A DNA stretch of 64,000 nucleotides from Streptococcus cristatus (GCF_963529205.1 NZ_CAURYF010000003.1:12258-76257); one strand, 5' to 3'; shown: positions 13,341 to 43,954, counted from the first letter of the stretch. Numbers and translations are program-made. The notes: a model not told the origin generated them from the sequence alone.

Positions 13341-13369
13341 TTGACTTTTTTATTAGACATGTGTAGAAT
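13341..13369 (+). promoter_or_regulatory. Promoter of the BlaI-like gene with an overlapping BlaI/CopY-type operator
   Basis: TTGACT(13341)-17-TAGAAT(13364); GACA-TG-TGTA at 13356-13365. Confidence 0.75.
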
Positions 13370-13406
13370 AAAATTAGAAGAAGACTTTAGAAAGGATGGA
13401 AATACA

Positions 13407-13784
13407 ATGAATCATTCAATTAAACGTTTACCAGATGGTGAATTTGCCATCTTAAAGATTATTTGGCACCTGCCAAATCCAACGACTTCTGCTCAAATTA
13501 TGGAAAAGCTAGGTGAAGATAACCATTGGAAGCCTCAGACCTTGTTGACAGTTCTGGCTCGCTTGACGGAAAAGGGTTTCTTAGAAAGTGTTCGAAAGGG
13601 ACGCGAAAGGCAATATACGGCCTTAATTTCGGAAGAGGAATATTTAGAAGTAGAGACGTCAGACTTTTTGAAGCGCTACAGCGGACATTCCATGGGAGGC
13701 TTTGTCAAGACTCTCTTTTCATCTAATTCTTTTTCAGAAAATGAACTGGATGAGTTGCGTAATTTACTGAATCAGAAAGAGTAA
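13407..13784 (+). CDS. BlaI/MecI/CopY family repressor
   Basis: EFAILKIIW, WKPQTLLTVLARLTEKGFL winged helix, C-terminal ELDELRNLL; RBS AAAGGA before ATG 13407. Confidence 0.92.
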   Translation: MNHSIKRLPDGEFAILKIIWHLPNPTTSAQIMEKLGEDNHWKPQTLLTVLARLTEKGFLESVRKGRERQYTALISEEEYLEVETSDFLKRYSGHSMGGFVKTLFSSNSFSENELDELRNLLNQKE

Positions 13785-13799
13785 GATGAGGTAGTATCC

Positions 13800-15305
13800 A
13801 TGAAACAGTTCCTTTTGTCTTTCCTCTTAACCAGTCTTTCCACTTCGATTTTGGTTCTGTTTTTGAGCCTTCTTTTTGCAGCCCTCAAGACCAAGATTTC
13901 AGTCAAGGTCAAGTATTTTGTCTGGTTTTTAATCTTGCTGAGCTTTCTATTCCCATTCCGTCCTCAGTTTGGCTCTGGTTTGATTCGGCTGAGTACTGGG
14001 GCGACTGTTCAGACAGCTGTTAGAGCTGGCCAGACAGGTGGAGGGCAAGCTGTTTCTCAAGTAGCTGAGAAAGCAACCCAGGCCAATCTCTGGGAGGCTT
14101 TTCTGGGTCTACCTTGGTTTGAAATATTCTTTGCCATTTGGCTGCTTGGTTGTGCATTTAACCTAGGTAAATATGCCTATTCTTATATCCGTTTCAAAAA
14201 GATGTTGCAACGTTGGGGGACAGAGGTTGAGGACGAAGAGACTGTGTTCCAGTTGCATTTGATCAAAGAAAAGATGGGCGTTAAAAGTAAGATTCGTCTG
14301 CTCCACTACCCTATGACACAGAGCCCAATGTTGCTAGGATTCAGGGATATTTTGATTGTGCTACCGGAGCTGGACTACACGGAGGAGGAGCTGCAGCTGA
14401 TTTTTCAGCATGAGTTGACCCATTATCAGCACCGGGATGTCTTGATTAATCTTCTTGCAATTTTCGCCAAGAGCCTGCATTGGTTTAATCCAGTAGTGCG
14501 TTTTGCTTGTCGGGAAACTCAGGAAGCAGGAGAAATGTATTGTGACTACGATGTTTTGAGCTGTAGAGATACAGAGTATCGGACTTTCTACGGTGAAACG
14601 ATTTTGACCATGATAGACCGCAGTAAGAAGACCCCGATTTCTCTGACAACTTGTTTTTACTCTGATAATTTTAATCTTAAGCGGCGGATTGTCGGCATTA
14701 TGGATAACCGCCTGCCTAAGAGGTTTCTGTCTGCTTCTTTCGTAGTAGCAGTTCCTCTACTTTTACTCTTGTCTAGCTCGGTCTTTGCCTTAGAAAATCC
14801 TGTCGCACAAGATAGTAAACTTGTCTTAGAGTCCAAGAAAGCGGAAGGACTTAGTCAGCGTCAGGCCTTAGAAACAGTTTTGAAGGAACTTTCTCTGGCT
14901 GAAAAGGATGTCAAAGATGTGCAGATTTCACGTGAGAAAGGCAATTATAAGATTCTCTTTTCACATGGACAGACGGCTCATGAGCTCACTGTAAATGCCA
15001 AGACTGGAAAAGTCGTCCAATCCAAGCAGCATACCATTGTTGAAAAGACAGTAACAGTTGAAAAAGAAGTTCCGGCATCATCGTCTTCTGCAGCGACTCC
15101 AGCTGATAGTGAAAGTGGGAATGTGAATGCGGGTCAGACGGGAAGTGTTAGCTCGCCGACTCTTGCGACCAATAATGTGACAAATTCAAATACAAACACT
15201 AGTACAGCACCTGTCCAACCTCCTGCTCAAACTAGCTCTTCAAAGAGTAAGGATAAAGATCGTGATGATGACAAAGACGATGACGACGATGATGATGACG
15301 ATTAG
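13800..15305 (+). CDS. BlaR1-type M56 metallopeptidase sensor with PepSY-like extracellular domain and poly-Asp tail
   Basis: SPML.G, HELTH zinc motif, HWFNP, E..CD and LKRRI; then TM, PepSY-like segment (HELTVNAKTGKVV), Ser/Thr-rich linker and DDDKDDDDDDDD. Confidence 0.9.
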   Translation: MKQFLLSFLLTSLSTSILVLFLSLLFAALKTKISVKVKYFVWFLILLSFLFPFRPQFGSGLIRLSTGATVQTAVRAGQTGGGQAVSQVAEKATQANLWEAFLGLPWFEIFFAIWLLGCAFNLGKYAYSYIRFKKMLQRWGTEVEDEETVFQLHLIKEKMGVKSKIRLLHYPMTQSPMLLGFRDILIVLPELDYTEEELQLIFQHELTHYQHRDVLINLLAIFAKSLHWFNPVVRFACRETQEAGEMYCDYDVLSCRDTEYRTFYGETILTMIDRSKKTPISLTTCFYSDNFNLKRRIVGIMDNRLPKRFLSASFVVAVPLLLLLSSSVFALENPVAQDSKLVLESKKAEGLSQRQALETVLKELSLAEKDVKDVQISREKGNYKILFSHGQTAHELTVNAKTGKVVQSKQHTIVEKTVTVEKEVPASSSSAATPADSESGNVNAGQTGSVSSPTLATNNVTNSNTNTSTAPVQPPAQTSSSKSKDKDRDDDKDDDDDDDDD

Positions 15306-15312
15306 ATAAAAG

Positions 15313-15364
15313 ATTCTACCAATTGAGGTTTCTTGATAGAAGCAGCGATTGGTAGAATTTTTTT
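15313..15364 (+). terminator. Terminator after the M56 gene
   Basis: ATTCTACCAATTG...CGATTGGTAGAAT followed by a T run. Confidence 0.75.
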
Positions 15365-15447
15365 ATCTTTATTTTTGGTAGAATCTAGTCTTCAACTCAT
15401 AAATTGAGGTCAATTTTAAAGTTTTTTAAATTTTAGTAATTTTCCTC

Positions 15448-15590
15448 TTGACTTTTTAAAACTACAAGCGTAGAATGTAAGTATAAACTACAAATGTAGA
15501 ATAAAGTTTTGAAAATACTGTCCGGAAAGTATGAGAGTAGTAGAGCAAGGGCTCTCTTTCTTTTAAAACTTTAAACGACACTTGTAGAAT
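15448..15590 (+). promoter_or_regulatory. VTC operon promoter with three BlaI/CopY-type operators
   Basis: TTGACT(15448)-17-TAGAAT(15471); AAACTACAAGCGTAGAAT, AAACTACAAATGTAGAAT and AAACGACACTTGTAGAAT. Confidence 0.8.
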
Positions 15591-15605
15591 AAAAGGGGAA
15601 TTAAA

Positions 15606-16337
15606 ATGAAACAAAAACAAATCCAAACGAACTTCCTACGTGTTGAAACAAAGTACATTTTAGACCGTGCGACCTTGGCTCGCGTAGAAGCTGAGATGCA
15701 TGCTTACCTCATTCCGGATGATTATGCAACTTCGACTATTTCAAATGTCTATTTTGATAATGATGATTTTCAAATGATCCAAGACTCGATTGCTAGAAGA
15801 GGCGGCCGTGAAAAGCTACGGATGCGGACTTATGCAGCGGAGCCAACAAGGGATAGTCAGGTATTTTTGGAAATCAAGAAAAAGTCGGAGGACGTTGGCT
15901 TCAAGTATCGACTGGTTTCAAATCTAACTTCAGTTGTTAATTATATTGAGAAAGGACTTACAGACCAAACTATTTCTGATGAGCGGGTCAAGACAGAAGT
16001 GGAGCTGTTGCAGGAGCGTTATGCAGGCTTAAAACCGAAAATGGTAATTAGCTATGATCGTTATTCGATGAAAGGATCAGAAGATAAAAAAGTTCGTGTG
16101 ACGGTTGACTCCAATATCCGCTTCCGTGATTATGATGTAGACTTGACTTCAGGTCGCCACGGCTATCCTCTCTTGGAAGACGATATGGTGATTATGGAAA
16201 TCAAGGTTTCAGGGGAATATCCTCAGTGGATGTCTGAAATTTTGAATAAATACGGCCTTGAAGCTCAGTCCTTCTCAAAATACGGCAAAGCCTATCTAAA
16301 ATCTAAAGAATTGGTTCCTCAAGCCGTCAAGGTTTAA
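15606..16337 (+). CDS. VTC-domain (CYTH/TTM superfamily) polyphosphate-polymerase-like protein
   Basis: RVETKY, SNVYFD, KLRMRTY, FLEIKKK, YDR, RVTVDSNI, IMEIK and FSKY motifs. Confidence 0.9.
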   Translation: MKQKQIQTNFLRVETKYILDRATLARVEAEMHAYLIPDDYATSTISNVYFDNDDFQMIQDSIARRGGREKLRMRTYAAEPTRDSQVFLEIKKKSEDVGFKYRLVSNLTSVVNYIEKGLTDQTISDERVKTEVELLQERYAGLKPKMVISYDRYSMKGSEDKKVRVTVDSNIRFRDYDVDLTSGRHGYPLLEDDMVIMEIKVSGEYPQWMSEILNKYGLEAQSFSKYGKAYLKSKELVPQAVKV

Positions 16338-16348
16338 GGAGAGAAACA

Positions 16349-17032
16349 ATGATTACACAGTTATTTAACAGCATCTATTCTTCGGCCGAAATCAAGGTTA
16401 ACCCTCTAGCTCTAATAGCCTCCCTCGTGACGGGCTTGATTTTGGGGATTATTTTGGCCAAGGTTTATAAGCACCAAACTATTTACACCAAGGAGTTTGT
16501 CATCACACTGTCTCTCTTGCCGGCCATTATCTCCATTATCATTTTCTTGGTAAATGGAAATCTGGGAACCAGTGTCGCTGTAGCAGGAACATTCAGTTTG
16601 ATTCGTTTCAGATCAGCAGCAGGAGGGTCCAAAGAACTTTTAGCCATCTTCATGGCGACAGCGATTGGGATCACGACAGGAATGGGTTTCTTAGCTCTAG
16701 GAGTTTTTTTCACGCTCCTCATTTCCTTCTTTTGGTTGCACTTTGAAAAGATGGGCTTTAGTTCGGTTAGTCAAACCAGACGTTATGTCCAAATTCAGAT
16801 TCCTTCTGAGTTAGACTATGAAGTCCTTTTTGAAGCAATCTTTGAAACAGCCTGCAAAAGTTTTGAGTTGACCTCGGTCCAGTCAGTTGACAATAAGTTT
16901 ATCAAGTTGGACTACGTGGTTGATTTGAAACCAGATGTAAGCGACCAGCACCTCATTCAACGCTTCTTACGCTATGAGAAGATTAAGAATATTTCCTTCT
17001 CGAAAGAAGCCAAAAAACGAAAAACCTTGTAA
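16349..17032 (+). CDS. DUF4956 family membrane protein
   Basis: VNGNLGTSVAVAGTFSLIRFRSAAG signature, several TM plus soluble C-terminal domain. Confidence 0.9.
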   Translation: MITQLFNSIYSSAEIKVNPLALIASLVTGLILGIILAKVYKHQTIYTKEFVITLSLLPAIISIIIFLVNGNLGTSVAVAGTFSLIRFRSAAGGSKELLAIFMATAIGITTGMGFLALGVFFTLLISFFWLHFEKMGFSSVSQTRRYVQIQIPSELDYEVLFEAIFETACKSFELTSVQSVDNKFIKLDYVVDLKPDVSDQHLIQRFLRYEKIKNISFSKEAKKRKTL

Positions 17033-17056: not shown

Positions 17057-17092
17057 ACTTGCATCCCAAAAGTTATCTTTTGGGATGCAAGT
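17057..17092. repeat. Perfect 16-bp inverted repeat (terminator; possible IS-end remnant)
   Basis: ACTTGCATCCCAAAAG-TTAT-CTTTTGGGATGCAAGT. Confidence 0.7.
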
Positions 17093-17166: not shown

Positions 17167-17784
17167 GTGCTTCATATAATAATCATCATTTCTATCATAC
17201 TTTTATTACTCATGTTTCATTCTTTGATTCAGCAATCAAAGAATCCTTCGGGCTTTCTAGGAAAACGAATGATGAAATTGTGGAATCGAGCCTATATCCC
17301 CATGTTTGTATGGGCAATTCGTCATCTGGATAGGACATTTTACCCTGTAATCTTAGATGTAGGAGTTGGGAACGGCCGTTCAACCATCCTACTGAAAGAA
17401 ACCTTTCCGCAAAGTACTATAACTGGAATCGATATTTCAGACATTGCAATAGCTCAAGCCAAACAGATAGGGATGGTCAATCTAAATTTTGAACGAAGAG
17501 ACGTTAGGGAGACAGGATTTTCTGATGAAAGTTTTGATTTGATTACAGCTTTTCAAACGCATTTTCATTGGCAAGACCTAGATGCTTCTTTTATAGAGCT
17601 TCGAAGGATACTCAAATCAGATGGGATGCTCTTACTGGCTTGTGAATATAACAAGTTGTCTTACTTTTTACCAGAGGTCCAAAGCGAAGAAGCATTTAGA
17701 CGATTTTTGTTATCAGTAGGCTTTGAGCTCGTAACTAGTCAAAGAAAGGGATCGTGGATCCTTTATAAAATTGTCAAACATTAA
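17167..17784 (+). CDS. Class I SAM-dependent methyltransferase with hydrophobic N-terminus
   Basis: ILDVGVGNG, GIDIS, FDLI and RILKSDG motifs. Confidence 0.85.
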   Translation: MLHIIIIISIILLLLMFHSLIQQSKNPSGFLGKRMMKLWNRAYIPMFVWAIRHLDRTFYPVILDVGVGNGRSTILLKETFPQSTITGIDISDIAIAQAKQIGMVNLNFERRDVRETGFSDESFDLITAFQTHFHWQDLDASFIELRRILKSDGMLLLACEYNKLSYFLPEVQSEEAFRRFLLSVGFELVTSQRKGSWILYKIVKH

Positions 17785-17797
17785 TGGAGGCACAATC

Positions 17798-18421
17798 ATG
17801 AAACAATTATTTTTATGTTCATACTTTGCTGGTGTCAAAAAGCTTTTTAGAGATTATGCAAAGGAAAAGAATCTAGAAAATAAGGTTTTATTTATTCCTA
17901 CCGCTGGGAACAAAGAGGACTATACTGCCTATATTGATGAGGCTCAGCAAACATTCAGAGATTTAGGATTTGAGATAGAGGTTCTAGATATTGCTTCTTG
18001 TGATCGAGAAACTGCACAGGCAAAGATTTTCCAAAGCAAAATTCTTTATATCTCTGGCGGGAATACATTTTATTTATTACAAGAATTAAAGAAAAAACAA
18101 CTCCTATCTCTTATCAAAGAACAAATAAGAGATGGGTTGGTCTATGTGGGAGAATCAGCAGGGGCTATCATTACAGCTAAGGATATTGACTACAATAAAC
18201 TCATGGACGATAAGACCGTAGCGACAGAGTTATCTGATACAGCAGGATTGGATGAAGTGGATTTTTACATCCTTCCACATTATGGTGAGGAGCCTTTTAC
18301 TGATAGTAGCAAAAAGACCTTTGAAACCTATAAAAATCAGTTCAGTTTAATGCTAATAAACAATTCCCAAGCCGTAATTGTAAATGGTGAAGAAAGAGAA
18401 GTCGTTTCTGAACAGACTTAA
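17798..18421 (+). CDS. Peptidase S51 (peptidase E / GATase1-like) family protein
   Basis: FIPTA, SGGNTFYLL, GESAGA and LPH motifs; GGAGG RBS. Confidence 0.88.
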   Translation: MKQLFLCSYFAGVKKLFRDYAKEKNLENKVLFIPTAGNKEDYTAYIDEAQQTFRDLGFEIEVLDIASCDRETAQAKIFQSKILYISGGNTFYLLQELKKKQLLSLIKEQIRDGLVYVGESAGAIITAKDIDYNKLMDDKTVATELSDTAGLDEVDFYILPHYGEEPFTDSSKKTFETYKNQFSLMLINNSQAVIVNGEEREVVSEQT

Positions 18422-18580
18422 AATAAATTTCTTTTTGCTATTATGATGTTCATTCTAACAATTTGTTGCTTTTAAAAAAGAAAGTGAAGATAATATAAGT
18501 TTATGGCAGTTTTTTTCTTGACATTTATCCATTTTGCGTGTAGAATAGAATAGATCTTGGACTTGAAGGGAGTGAAAAAA

Positions 18581-18757
18581 ATGTCAAAAACAGTAGTACG
18601 TAAGAATGAATCTCTTGACGATGCTCTTCGTCGTTTCAAACGTGCGGTTACTAAAGCTGGTACTCTTCAAGAAACACGCAAACGTGAATTCTATGAAAAA
18701 CCTTCTGTAAAACGCAAACGCAAATCAGAAGCAGCTCGTAAACGTAAAAAATTCTAA
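18581..18757 (+). CDS. rpsU: 30S ribosomal protein S21
   Basis: [21 protein letters not shown]. Confidence 0.98.
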
Positions 18758-18819
18758 TAACTAGAATGAGAAAACAGTCGATTTGGCTGTTTTTTTCTTT
18801 TGGTTGAAAAGCGTATAAT

Positions 18820-41910: not shown

Positions 41911-42585
41911 ATGATTAAGATTCTATTAGTGGAGGATGACCTCGGTCTGTCAAACTCAGTATTTGATTTTTTAGATGATTTTGCAGATGTTATGCAGGTC
42001 TTTGATGGCGAAGAAGGCTTATACGAGGCAGAAAGTGGCGTGTATGACCTGATTTTGCTAGACTTGATGCTTCCTGAAAAGGATGGCTTCCAAGTGCTCA
42101 AAGAATTGCGTGAAAAAGGGGTAACCACTCCTGTCCTCATCATGACTGCCAAGGAAAGTATCGATGATAAAGGCCATGGTTTTGAACTCGGTGCTGATGA
42201 TTACCTGACTAAGCCTTTTTATCTAGAAGAGCTTAAAATGCGGATTCAGGCCTTGCTCAAACGCTCTGGTAAGTTTAATGAAAATACCCTATCCTATGGT
42301 GATGTGACAGTCAATCTTTCGACCAATTCGACCTTGGTAGATGGAAAAGAAGTTGAGCTATTGGGGAAAGAGTTTGATCTGTTGGTCTACTTCCTTCAGA
42401 ATCAAAATGTCATTTTGCCCAAGACTCAGATCTTCGATCGTTTGTGGGGCTTTGACAGCGATACGACCATTTCTGTGGTGGAAGTCTATGTATCTAAGAT
42501 TCGGAAAAAATTGAAAGGAACGGCTTTTGCGAATAATCTTCAAACCCTTCGCAGTGTCGGTTACATTTTAAAGAATGCTGAATAA
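41911..42585 (+). CDS. ciaR: Response regulator CiaR
   Basis: [33 protein letters not shown]; pepN-ciaRH synteny. Confidence 0.96.
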
Positions 42586-43954
42586 ACTCAAAAAAGCCTT
42601 ATATGCGGATGATTTTTCTTATTTCATTCGCTATTTTGGTGTATTCACCCTGATTTTCTCGGCCATGACGCTCATTATTATCCAAGTCATGCGCTCTAGC
42701 CTTTACACGACCGTTGATGATAATCTCAAAAGTCTCAGTCAAAATCCCGCCTGGGTAGCCAATCTAGCCTATCGGACGACGGGGCGGCAATACCAAGAGC
42801 CAGAGAACAAGGATTCAGAGCACAGAGATTCAGAGTCTGTCCAAGCTCATGATATCAAGATTGAGGAACCGGGTAGGGTAAATGTTAGCGCCAATACCTC
42901 AGCTATTCTTTTGAATGATGATTATCAGAATGTATCGGCAAAAAATAGCTTTTTAAACTTTGATGCGATTAAATTTAACAAACGATTTCTTAATCAAATC
43001 AAGCAAATTCAGCTGACCAATAGCTACGGACAGGTCGAGAGTTATCGGGCCTATATGTTTGACATTGATCCAGATGATGAAATTGAAAATGTCAAATACG
43101 CGGTTGTCATGACCAGTATCAGCCAGCTGGAGCAGACTAGCGAAAAGCATGAAAAGCTGATTGCGATTGTCATGATTAGCTTCTGGGGTATTTCCTTGAT
43201 TGCCAGTATCTATCTAGCGCGGATGAGTGTCAAGCCTCTCTTGGACAGCATGCAAAAGCAGAAGTCCTTTGTCGAAAATGCTAGCCACGAATTGCGGACG
43301 CCTCTAGCTGTGCTGCAAAATCGCTTGGAATCTCTCTTCCGTAAGCCTGAAGCTACGATTATGGAGTCTAGTGGGAGTATCGCGTCTAGTTTAGAGGAAG
43401 TACGAAATATGCGTCTATTGACGACCAACTTACTCAATCTAGCAAGGCGAGATGACGGCATCAAGCCAGAATACGGTGAAGTCACGCCAGACTTCTTCAC
43501 GACAGCTTTTTCTAACTATGCTATTATTGCGGAGGAAAGCGACAAGATCTTTGATTTTAAAAATCTGGTTTCAAAATCAATCACGACAGACAAGGTCTTG
43601 CTTAAGCAGGTTATGACCATCCTTTTTGATAATGCCATCAAATACACAGAGGAAGATGGAGAGATCTACTTTGTAGCCTCCGCCAATGATCGGAGCTTGA
43701 CCTTGCGTATTTCTGACAATGGTCCAGGAATTGCGGGCGATGATAAGAAAAAGGTTTTCGATCGTTTTTATCGGGTGGATAAGGCACGGACTCGGCAAAA
43801 GGGTGGTTTTGGATTAGGTCTATCCTTGGCAAAACAAATTGTAGACGCCTTAAAAGGAACCATCACAGTCAAAGACAACAAACCGCGTGGAACCATTTTT
43901 GAAATCAAAGTTCCTCTTAGGTCAGATATTAGAAAACGAATCAGCAAAAGCTGA
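42575..43954 (+). CDS. ciaH: Sensor histidine kinase CiaH
   Basis: [19 protein letters not shown] and GGFGLGL; follows ciaR. Confidence 0.95.

Follow-up and report, generated by a model that had tools for sequence, protein, structure and literature searches.

A BlaI-type repressor and an M56 membrane protease linked to a VTC–DUF4956 gene pair in Streptococcus cristatus: a candidate switch for polyphosphate synthesis

Introduction

Which genes would a BlaI-type repressor control when its partner protease and the genes that follow it do not look like parts of a beta-lactam resistance system? This question is raised by a 64-kb window of Streptococcus cristatus DNA (the whole stretch of 64,000 nucleotides analysed here; GCF_963529205.1, NZ_CAURYF010000003.1:12258-76257), in which genes for a BlaI-type repressor, an M56-family protease, a VTC-domain protein and a DUF4956 membrane protein follow one another in this order on the plus strand. 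A first-pass annotation of the same DNA had read this cassette as a BlaI/BlaR1-like signalling pair wired to a split, Vtc4-like polyphosphate (polyP) polymerase and its membrane partner. Here, we find the regulatory wiring to be well supported by operator co-occurrence, by conserved gene linkage and by the co-varying expression of the predicted targets, and we discuss the extent to which the cassette may drive polyP synthesis and surface delivery.

Results

A four-gene cassette with related operator sites at both promoters

A Pfam search of the proteins encoded in the window returned the gene order and the four families named by the first-pass annotation (Penicillinase_R, 3e-27; Peptidase_M56, 6e-46; VTC, 2e-48; DUF4956, 4e-16; Table 1). 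The host genome is a Streptococcus assembly that is 91% complete with 4.5% contamination, and the M56 protein of the window shares 90-96% identity with its counterparts in S. cristatus records. The left boundary proposed earlier, position 13341, proved to be the -35 hexamer of the first promoter; the repressor gene itself starts at the ATG at 13407, the point from which both Pfam and NCBIfam models match, and a 147-amino-acid version starting at a TTG codon was rejected.

The TTGACT-17-TAGAAT architecture previously claimed for both promoters is found at both, and this exact pattern occurs three times in the 1.86-Mb genome; the shared -10 element is partly a by-product, because the TAG of the operator overlaps TAGAAT. 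Given the hairpin after the M56 gene and the terminator-like site after the DUF4956 gene, the cassette is probably transcribed as two units, each with its own promoter.

Instead of the same operator at both promoters, as had been proposed, four related but non-identical sites are present, one at blaI and three at VTC. The single exact TACAnnTGTA match in the window (0.60 expected) is at chance level when taken alone. The window contains three sites with no more than one mismatch to CTACAnnTGTAG, all of which fall within the 115 bp preceding VTC (genome rate, 0.027 per kb), and this clustering is non-random.

Table 1. Position of the cassette genes and of their predicted regulatory signals (window coordinates)
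Feature	Position	Strand	Remarks
blaI–M56 promoter	13341..13369	+	TTGACT-17-TAGAAT; matching operator upstream of blaI in 24/24 BlaI loci
Operator 1, AGACATGTGTAG	13355..13366	.	2 mismatches to CTACAnnTGTAG; overlaps blaI -10; predicted weak autorepression
BlaI/MecI/CopY-family repressor	13407..13784	+	125 amino acids; Pfam PF03965, 3e-27
M56 membrane metalloprotease	13800..15305	+	501 amino acids; HELTH motif 204-208; last membrane helix ~305-333
Hairpin with T run after M56, predicted terminator	15308..15364	+	-29.2 kcal/mol, z -8.7; 0/200 shuffles equally stable
VTC–DUF4956 promoter	15448..15476	+	TTGACT-17-TAGAAT; conserved in alignment of relatives
Operator 2, CTACAAGCGTAG	15462..15473	.	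1 mismatch to CTACAnnTGTAG; overlaps VTC -10
Operator 3, CTACAAATGTAG	15488..15499	.	0 mismatches (perfect); 26 bp past operator 2
Operator 4, CGACACTTGTAG	15576..15587	.	1 mismatch to CTACAnnTGTAG; directly before VTC ribosome-binding site
VTC-domain protein	15606..16337	+	243 amino acids; Vtc4-type triphosphate tunnel domain (Pfam, profile, fold model)
DUF4956 protein	16349..17032	+	227 amino acids; four predicted membrane helices, C-terminal ACT-like domain, MgtC-like
Terminator-like hairpin closing the VTC–DUF4956 unit	17057..17092	+	sequence scan

Operator sites and gene linkage follow the repressor across genomes

VTC domains were present in 236 of 400 genomes of the genus, and 80 of the 150 matches listed (312 in all) were analysed together with the two copies of the host genome, giving 82 streptococcal loci. 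BlaI–M56 genes adjoin VTC at 24 of them, and a VTC-upstream box with at most one mismatch accompanies all 24 and none of the other 58 (0/6 CotH loci and 0/52 remaining loci), the corresponding rate in shuffled upstream regions being 1.2%.

Seen from the protease, an M56 orthologue is encoded in 50 of the 400 genus genomes and lies within 4 kb of VTC in 46, the other four being deletions that take out VTC plus part of M56. A scan of all species representatives returned 63 M56 loci, 59 of which have VTC and the box; species with the boxed cassette include S. sanguinis, S. gordonii, S. sinensis, S. suis and S. minor, together with two of three Abiotrophia loci, and the four misses comprise an S. 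cristatus deletion, an Abiotrophia locus with DUF4956 only (L253) and two distant clostridial M56 proteins. The synteny survey that the first-pass annotation had named as a check thus bears out the linkage of the two gene pairs elsewhere. Between M56 and VTC, the S. suis-like lineage has an additional gene, which encodes a secreted PepSY-repeat protein and carries boxes of its own.

In a quick unrooted tree, the BlaI-linked VTC proteins fall into three streptococcal lineages, and one copy (L071, genome G177) is nested among them with its regulator and full boxes lost. Degenerate operator remnants are seen at VTC in L057 (G311) and L071, neither genome yielding a BlaI orthologue, and L071 retains a piece of the M56 terminator. 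A "vestigial CiaR promoter" considered ahead of the BlaI-type promoter in L050 and L071 was rejected, as it corresponds to the loop of this terminator. Frameshifted or deleted cassettes were recorded at L043, L080, L140-L143, L237 and L253, three of them with a similar deletion running from M56 into DUF4956. Since it is deleted in some strains, the cassette is not essential.

The genome also contains two separate copY-led copper operons at contig ends (contigs C75 and C78 of the host genome, G000). The boxes of the operon on C78, TTACAAATGTAA, share a 10-bp core with operator 3, whereas their flanks differ consistently from those of the cassette (T...A versus C...G). Other operator-like matches in this genome (C31, C41, C12 and others) were set aside as being without the paired-box promoter layout, and the extra matches in five relatives are mostly intragenic. 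L114 (G044:C1:887783) is a possible extra regulon member: its TTGACT-17-TAGAAT promoter has a BlaI-type box across the -10 element, and the gene behind it resembles, by its sequence, one for UDP-GlcNAc 2-epimerase.

An unlinked lipoprotein gene carries the same box arrangement

Outside the window, a lipoprotein gene (G000:C19:2547) has one box over its -10 element and a second 26 bp on, as at VTC. Its orthologue in genome G393 matches Pfam DUF3642, both boxes are kept in all 19 orthologues whose start was located by pattern (30 fetched, 11 unlocated), and a distant paralogue in the host genome is without a box. Operator-bearing genes are therefore blaI–M56, VTC–DUF4956 and the DUF3642 lipoprotein gene, with no linked beta-lactamase or penicillin-binding protein (PBP) target, in agreement with the earlier proposal of an output other than beta-lactamase. 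The lipoprotein gene, like the second VTC operon and the CiaR-type input on other copies described below, had been invisible to the first-pass annotation.

Among public RNA data, three raw-read runs stem from an organism whose reads leave the cassette locus uncovered, and a fourth is a flat contig. Expression tables for S. sanguinis SK36 (PMC8844241) allow the predicted targets to be compared. SSA_0816-0819 bear the same four annotations as the cassette, and the blaI, VTC and DUF4956 genes match those of the window in length (378, 732 and 684 nt; PMC8844241). SSA_0918 is likely the DUF3642 lipoprotein orthologue, identified from its neighbours and length only. When the pH was lowered from 7.4 to 6.2, the log2 changes after 10, 25 and 50 min were -0.74, -1.06 and -1.61 for SSA_0818 (VTC; 1e-4 in the p column at 50 min), -0.48, -0.91 and -1.12 for SSA_0819 (DUF4956) and -0.63, -0.63 and -0.99 for SSA_0918, those of blaI and M56 being at most -0.31 (PMC8844241). 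In the ssaACB Mn-transport mutant, SSA_0818, SSA_0819 and SSA_0918 stood at log2 -1.07, -0.83 and -1.01 relative to wild type at pH 7.4, with no further fall, and blaI, M56, htrA, ciaR and the second VTC gene barely changed across these acid-shift and mutant data (PMC8844241). The co-variation of the three genes is consistent with a shared regulator. In an SK36 ciaR mutant, both VTC operons were at 0.43-0.44x and were restored on complementation, values that come with q = 1 and low counts, rpsU being halved as well (tables of PMC5719415).

A repressor–protease pair of non-canonical type

The repressor scores below every NCBIfam BlaI/MecI/CopY cut-off (CopY model, 77 bits versus a cut-off of 122); it has no cysteine and is missing the Cys tail of the CopY proteins of this genome, the true CopY genes being those on C75 and C78. 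That it binds the predicted operators is, on sequence grounds, very likely.

In the M56 protein, H204, H208 and E245 of the zinc motif are invariant and E205 is kept in nine of 10 aligned proteins. Beyond the last helix, it comprises a weak PepSY-like domain (351-406, below cut-off), then a linker rich in Ser and Thr and finally a tail rich in Asp, and 10-15 of the last 25 residues are acidic in all 10 proteins. A penicillin-binding domain is absent: the BlaR1 model covers 3-343 of its 585 positions only, and the outer part gives only the weak PepSY match. As the protease is without a penicillin-binding domain and BlaR1 models cover just its protease half, the pair is best regarded as a non-canonical BlaIR system like CenIR. 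According to PMC13492132, only ~6% of BlaR-like proteins carry a penicillin-binding domain; thus, of the novelty implied by the first-pass annotation, the non-beta-lactam output stands, whereas the regulator type is less unusual than suggested.

Induction of the repressor targets through proteolysis by the M56 protein appears likely. A divalent-cation or pH-linked signal to the protease is a tentative and, on balance, doubtful proposal; it is nevertheless our leading guess because of the acidic tail, the response to pH and Mn transport, the use of Mn2+ by Vtc4 and the precedent of the calcium-binding CiaX of S. mutans (PMC8317062).

The VTC protein has the hallmarks of the Vtc4 catalytic domain

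The VTC protein is a single domain, with no membrane part and no SPX domain. A profile of 43 streptococcal VTC proteins scored 1e-15 against Vtc4, compared with 0.18 against the highest-ranking CYTH protein, and the fold model of the VTC protein (predicted local distance difference test score, pLDDT, 92) aligned with Vtc4 at Z 20.2 (root-mean-square deviation 2.7, 224 residues aligned), other tunnel enzymes reaching at most Z 13.7. According to a bioRxiv report (10.1101/2023.01.27.525886), nine Vtc4 residues are needed for synthesis (K200, R264, R266, K281, Y359, R361, E426, S457 and K458) and the enzyme is described as using Mn2+. Equivalents of all nine are present in the window protein (K16, R72, R74, K91, Y150, R152, E198, S224 and K225, the last corresponding to K458), and every one of them is retained throughout the VTC proteins compared (43/43 from streptococci and 39/39 from other Bacillota).

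In the hydrolases among the triphosphate tunnel metalloenzymes (TTMs), four glutamates form a patch at the positions that are basic in Vtc4 (PMC4641920). By sequence-motif mapping, as opposed to superposition, the patch positions in the window protein are basic at R12, K100/R102 and K200 and acidic at E14. Since all nine catalytic residues are present and the fold is closest to Vtc4, polymerase activity is likely, and we consider it reasonably probable, from sequence and model, that the protein synthesises polyP. Neither PPK1 nor PPK2 was found in the host genome or in five single-contig relatives.

DUF4956 as membrane partner

The DUF4956 model (pLDDT 78.5) consists of a four-helix membrane domain and an ACT-like domain. 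Among 78 sequences, R86-F-R88 is near-invariant, positions 86 and 88 being always and position 95 mostly basic, and these conserved basic residues adjoin the membrane helices. The protein matches the MgtC/SapB family weakly (1e-4; 21.8 bits versus a cut-off of 214) with a fitting architecture, and its C-terminal domain matches that of MgtC (2lqj) at Z 9.1, tied with many ACT-like folds; S. intermedius SIR_1592 (DUF4956) is likewise described as MgtC-like (PMC12345266). Fold and sequence searches of solved structures returned no match to the VTC channel, their lists being filled by the ACT-like domain, and an Atlas search with the membrane part gave low scores only (0.79). Of the split, Vtc4-like polymerase with membrane partner suggested earlier, the likeness to Vtc4 extends to the catalytic domain only.

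DUF4956 follows VTC in 79 of the 82 streptococcal loci, one miss being a contig end and two being real. L096 and L105 are second-copy operons of VTC and Cthe_2159 without DUF4956, and the SK36 tables list SSA_2340 and SSA_2342 without DUF4956 between them. As genome G037 has DUF4956 in its BlaI-linked copy, cross-use of DUF4956 between copies is possible.

Outside BlaI loci, the usual exported neighbours of the VTC–DUF4956 pair are Cthe_2159 or CotH, and 26 of the 82 loci combine DUF4956 with one of them. By analogy, polyP might pass through DUF4956, a proposal to which we give somewhat less than even weight; export as such is an analogy backed by the exported neighbour proteins.

Other VTC–DUF4956 copies and a CiaR-type input

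The host genome holds a second operon (G000:C1:85964-83298, minus strand) encoding VTC, DUF4956 and a Cthe_2159 lipoprotein, its VTC protein being 45% identical to that of the window. Its promoter has no BlaI operator and shows three TTTAAG-like repeats with the -10 element ten bases on, a layout of CiaR type (box consensus from PMC3091779; the CiaR of this genome was named via the recognition helix in the table of that paper). The layout is found at 33 of the 52 non-BlaI, non-CotH loci, at one of the 24 BlaI loci and in 0.16% of shuffles, many boxes being without the final G; the window's VTC copy has no such box. At L040, L075, L077 and L088, the VTC–DUF4956 cluster also contains genes for a phosphodiester glycosidase (NAGPA) and for a glycosyltransferase of GT2-GtrA type, in most cases along with Cthe_2159.

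Across the phylum, the VTC domain was present in 69 of 401 genomes; 40 VTC loci were fetched and the neighbours of 24 scanned with Pfam. Adjacent histidine kinase and response-regulator genes flank 17 of these 24, and for 13 of the 16 flanking response regulators tested (those at L150, L153, L156-L158, L160, L163-L166, L172, L175 and L176) the best match in the host genome is CiaR (38-45%), whose ciaRH genes lie within the window (41911-43954). TTTAAG-N5-TTTAAG-like boxes precede many VTC genes of these other Bacillota loci. BlaI–M56 genes were near VTC in one of the 40 phylum loci, downstream and without a box.

VTC–DUF4956 may thus be an ancestral target of CiaR-like systems, as judged from these arrangements. 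Because CiaR-type boxes precede many other copies, BlaI–M56 probably replaced an older two-component input of OmpR/CiaR type on one paralogue, the direction being suggested by nesting in the unrooted quick tree. In the literature, we did not find VTC genes named as CiaR targets, and the text and single supplement of a S. suis ciaRH paper do not mention VTC.

Flanking features

Methyltransferase and peptidase S51 genes (17167-18421; GC 0.37 and 0.35) follow the cassette and are present in the closest relatives only. The downstream methyltransferase and PepE genes were rejected as cassette parts in view of the preceding terminator, the lower GC content and their absence from most relatives. Further on (18518-18796), ~190 bases between a TTGACA-17-TAGAAT promoter and a terminator-like site make up a candidate non-coding RNA, one strand of which is heavily covered by RNA reads of a related organism and which has no convincing Rfam match; an Rfam scan of window positions 11000-45000 gave no match at gathering level.

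Discussion

The results presented here are compatible with a small, non-beta-lactam BlaIR-type regulon driving polyP synthesis with surface delivery, a composite reading that we advance tentatively. According to this model, the repressor would bind (C/A)KACAnnTGTAG operators, repressing its own operon weakly and VTC–DUF4956 tightly, together with one exported protein, namely the unlinked DUF3642 lipoprotein in this group and, for the S. suis-like lineage, the PepSY-repeat protein. The M56 protein would sense an outside cue via its PepSY-like domain and acidic tail and then cleave the repressor, whereupon the induced VTC protein would polymerise phosphate from ATP with Mn2+ in the fashion of Vtc4 and partner DUF4956 at the membrane, the chain most likely being passed to the surface as a cation-binding polyanion.

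Several observations weigh against this model. On the enzymatic side, our literature searches found no biochemistry of any bacterial VTC protein; E14, invariant where Vtc4 has T198, leaves one hydrolase-type acidic residue in place; and in S. intermedius the VTC deletion is without a reported aggregation defect, while the DUF4956 deletion has one (PMC12345266). As to delivery, DUF4956 yielded no channel match; VTC without DUF4956 (L096, L105 and L152) and DUF4956 without VTC (L253) both exist; Cthe_2159 or CotH stood beside none of the BlaI-linked copies (0/24 and 0/63); and no CotH was found in this 91%-complete genome, which leaves no obvious candidate for a consumer of polyP outside the cell. 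On the regulatory side, the loci are kin to each other, deriving from about three streptococcal lineages plus Abiotrophia, and the cassette is deleted or frameshifted in several strains. The SK36 changes are just 2- to 3-fold on a variable wild-type baseline (138 +/- 47), and SSA_0816 and SSA_0818 are on the cre-site list of the same source (PMC8844241). Finally, SSA_0918 was unchanged in the ciaR mutant while SSA_0818/0819 fell to 0.44x (q = 1; PMC5719415), a data set that speaks slightly against simple co-regulation of VTC–DUF4956 and the lipoprotein gene.

Two alternatives retain the regulation and differ in what the VTC protein does. The polymerase may be real with polyP staying inside the cell as a sink for ATP, phosphate or metal, with DUF4956 as an MgtC-like membrane anchor or regulator that adjusts enzyme activity through its ACT domain. 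The weak MgtC/SapB score, the C-terminal match to MgtC, the BlaI-linked loci without an outside partner enzyme, the VTC copies without DUF4956 and the lack of any detected PPK in the six genomes tested all fit this alternative, yet the pair stands elsewhere beside exported Cthe_2159 or CotH, the BlaI regulon holds an exported protein wherever examined, and basic residues flank the DUF4956 membrane helices; we regard it as unlikely, though a serious contender. Alternatively, the VTC protein might be a triphosphate hydrolase, or a phosphotransferase for which DUF4956 presents an acceptor in the membrane or envelope. Many reactions are compatible with the tunnel fold, one plant TTM whose tunnel resembles that of Vtc4 being a hydrolase (PMC4641920), and both the invariant E14 and the S. 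intermedius deletion without a reported phenotype (PMC12345266) would agree with such an activity. Against it are the three basic patch positions, the polymerase-specific K225 and the gap between Vtc4 and CYTH proteins in the profile search, which render a non-polymerase improbable.

The regulation itself could be otherwise if the boxes were read mainly by CopY in response to copper, or if expression were set by CcpA, BlaI–M56 being a mere neighbour. The 10-bp core shared between the CopY boxes and operator 3, the cre-site entries and the hardly responsive SK36 blaI (PMC8844241) are in line with this possibility; however, the boxes track BlaI, their flanks differ consistently from those of the CopY boxes, genomes with CopY-like proteins only (G311, G177 and G010) have no full box at VTC, and SSA_0918 co-varies although it is off the cre list (PMC8844241), making this explanation very improbable.

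The cassette shares features with several known systems. BlaI/BlaR1 and MecI/MecR1 resemble it in repressor family, in an M56 domain with HExxH, in an autoregulated operon and in a palindromic operator, the canonical BlaI/MecI core being an ACA-n-TGT palindrome; the cassette differs in having no penicillin-binding domain and no beta-lactamase or PBP target, and in scores below the family cut-offs. CenIR of Clostridioides difficile (PMC13492132) likewise pairs a BlaI-type repressor with a membrane protease without penicillin-binding domain, with a largely low-complexity outer tail and a small regulon that includes an exported protein, and PetRP of Synechocystis is a precedent for metal-triggered repressor proteolysis (bioRxiv 10.1101/2020.07.31.226407). 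In contrast to both, the cassette has VTC–DUF4956 plus a protein of the DUF3642 or PepSY type as targets, its sensor combines a PepSY-like domain with a tail rich in Asp, and it is non-essential. With Vtc4 (PDB 3g3q/3g3r, 7ytj and 8i6v), the VTC protein shares the tunnel fold and the nine catalytic residues, including the equivalent of K458, which separates active Vtc4 from Vtc2/Vtc3; in contrast to the VTC complex, it has no SPX domain and no fused helices, E14 replaces T198 and DUF4956 is without detected channel homology.

The same adjacent VTC and DUF4956 families occur, with CotH, as accessory genes of pel loci in Gram-positive bacteria (bioRxiv 10.1101/768473; PMC12345266), from which the cassette is set apart by a VTC protein that is 24-28% identical and on a separate long branch, by the absence of CotH and pel genes and by its dedicated repressor–protease switch. 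Boxes of the type known from the CiaRH regulon (PMC3091779 and PMC8317062) precede other streptococcal VTC genes, including the second copy, and not the window copy. Non-lactam BlaIR pairs, Vtc4 and VTC–DUF4956 as pel accessories are thus already known; the wiring of BlaI–M56 to VTC–DUF4956 appears to be new, no description of it having been found in a literature search that covered work other than subscription papers and bioRxiv supplements. In further papers, these genes are table entries only.

More speculatively, and with little confidence, VTC–DUF4956 could be viewed as a PPK-independent synthase-exporter by which cells acquire a polyP coat in response to the cation or envelope state outside. 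It would originally have been a target of the CiaR-like two-component systems found next to it across Bacillota, and a mobile copy would have been rewired, in oral streptococci and Abiotrophia, to a repressor–protease pair whose acidic tail responds to a cue of the same kind. The cassette bears on the debate over polyP made without PPK, and over polyP outside the cell, in Gram-positive bacteria; this issue has been raised for Bacillus cereus, where the authors report no VTC4 homologue (PMC13484657).

In S. sanguinis-group bacteria, the widespread VTC–DUF4956 pair appears under a dedicated, dispensable repressor where no PPK was found; therefore, deletion of the repressor should induce the pair against a clean background, revealing whether VTC–DUF4956 makes polyP and where this polyP ends up. 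At the same time, one of the many BlaR-like sensors can now be assigned a predicted operator and a defined set of putative targets.

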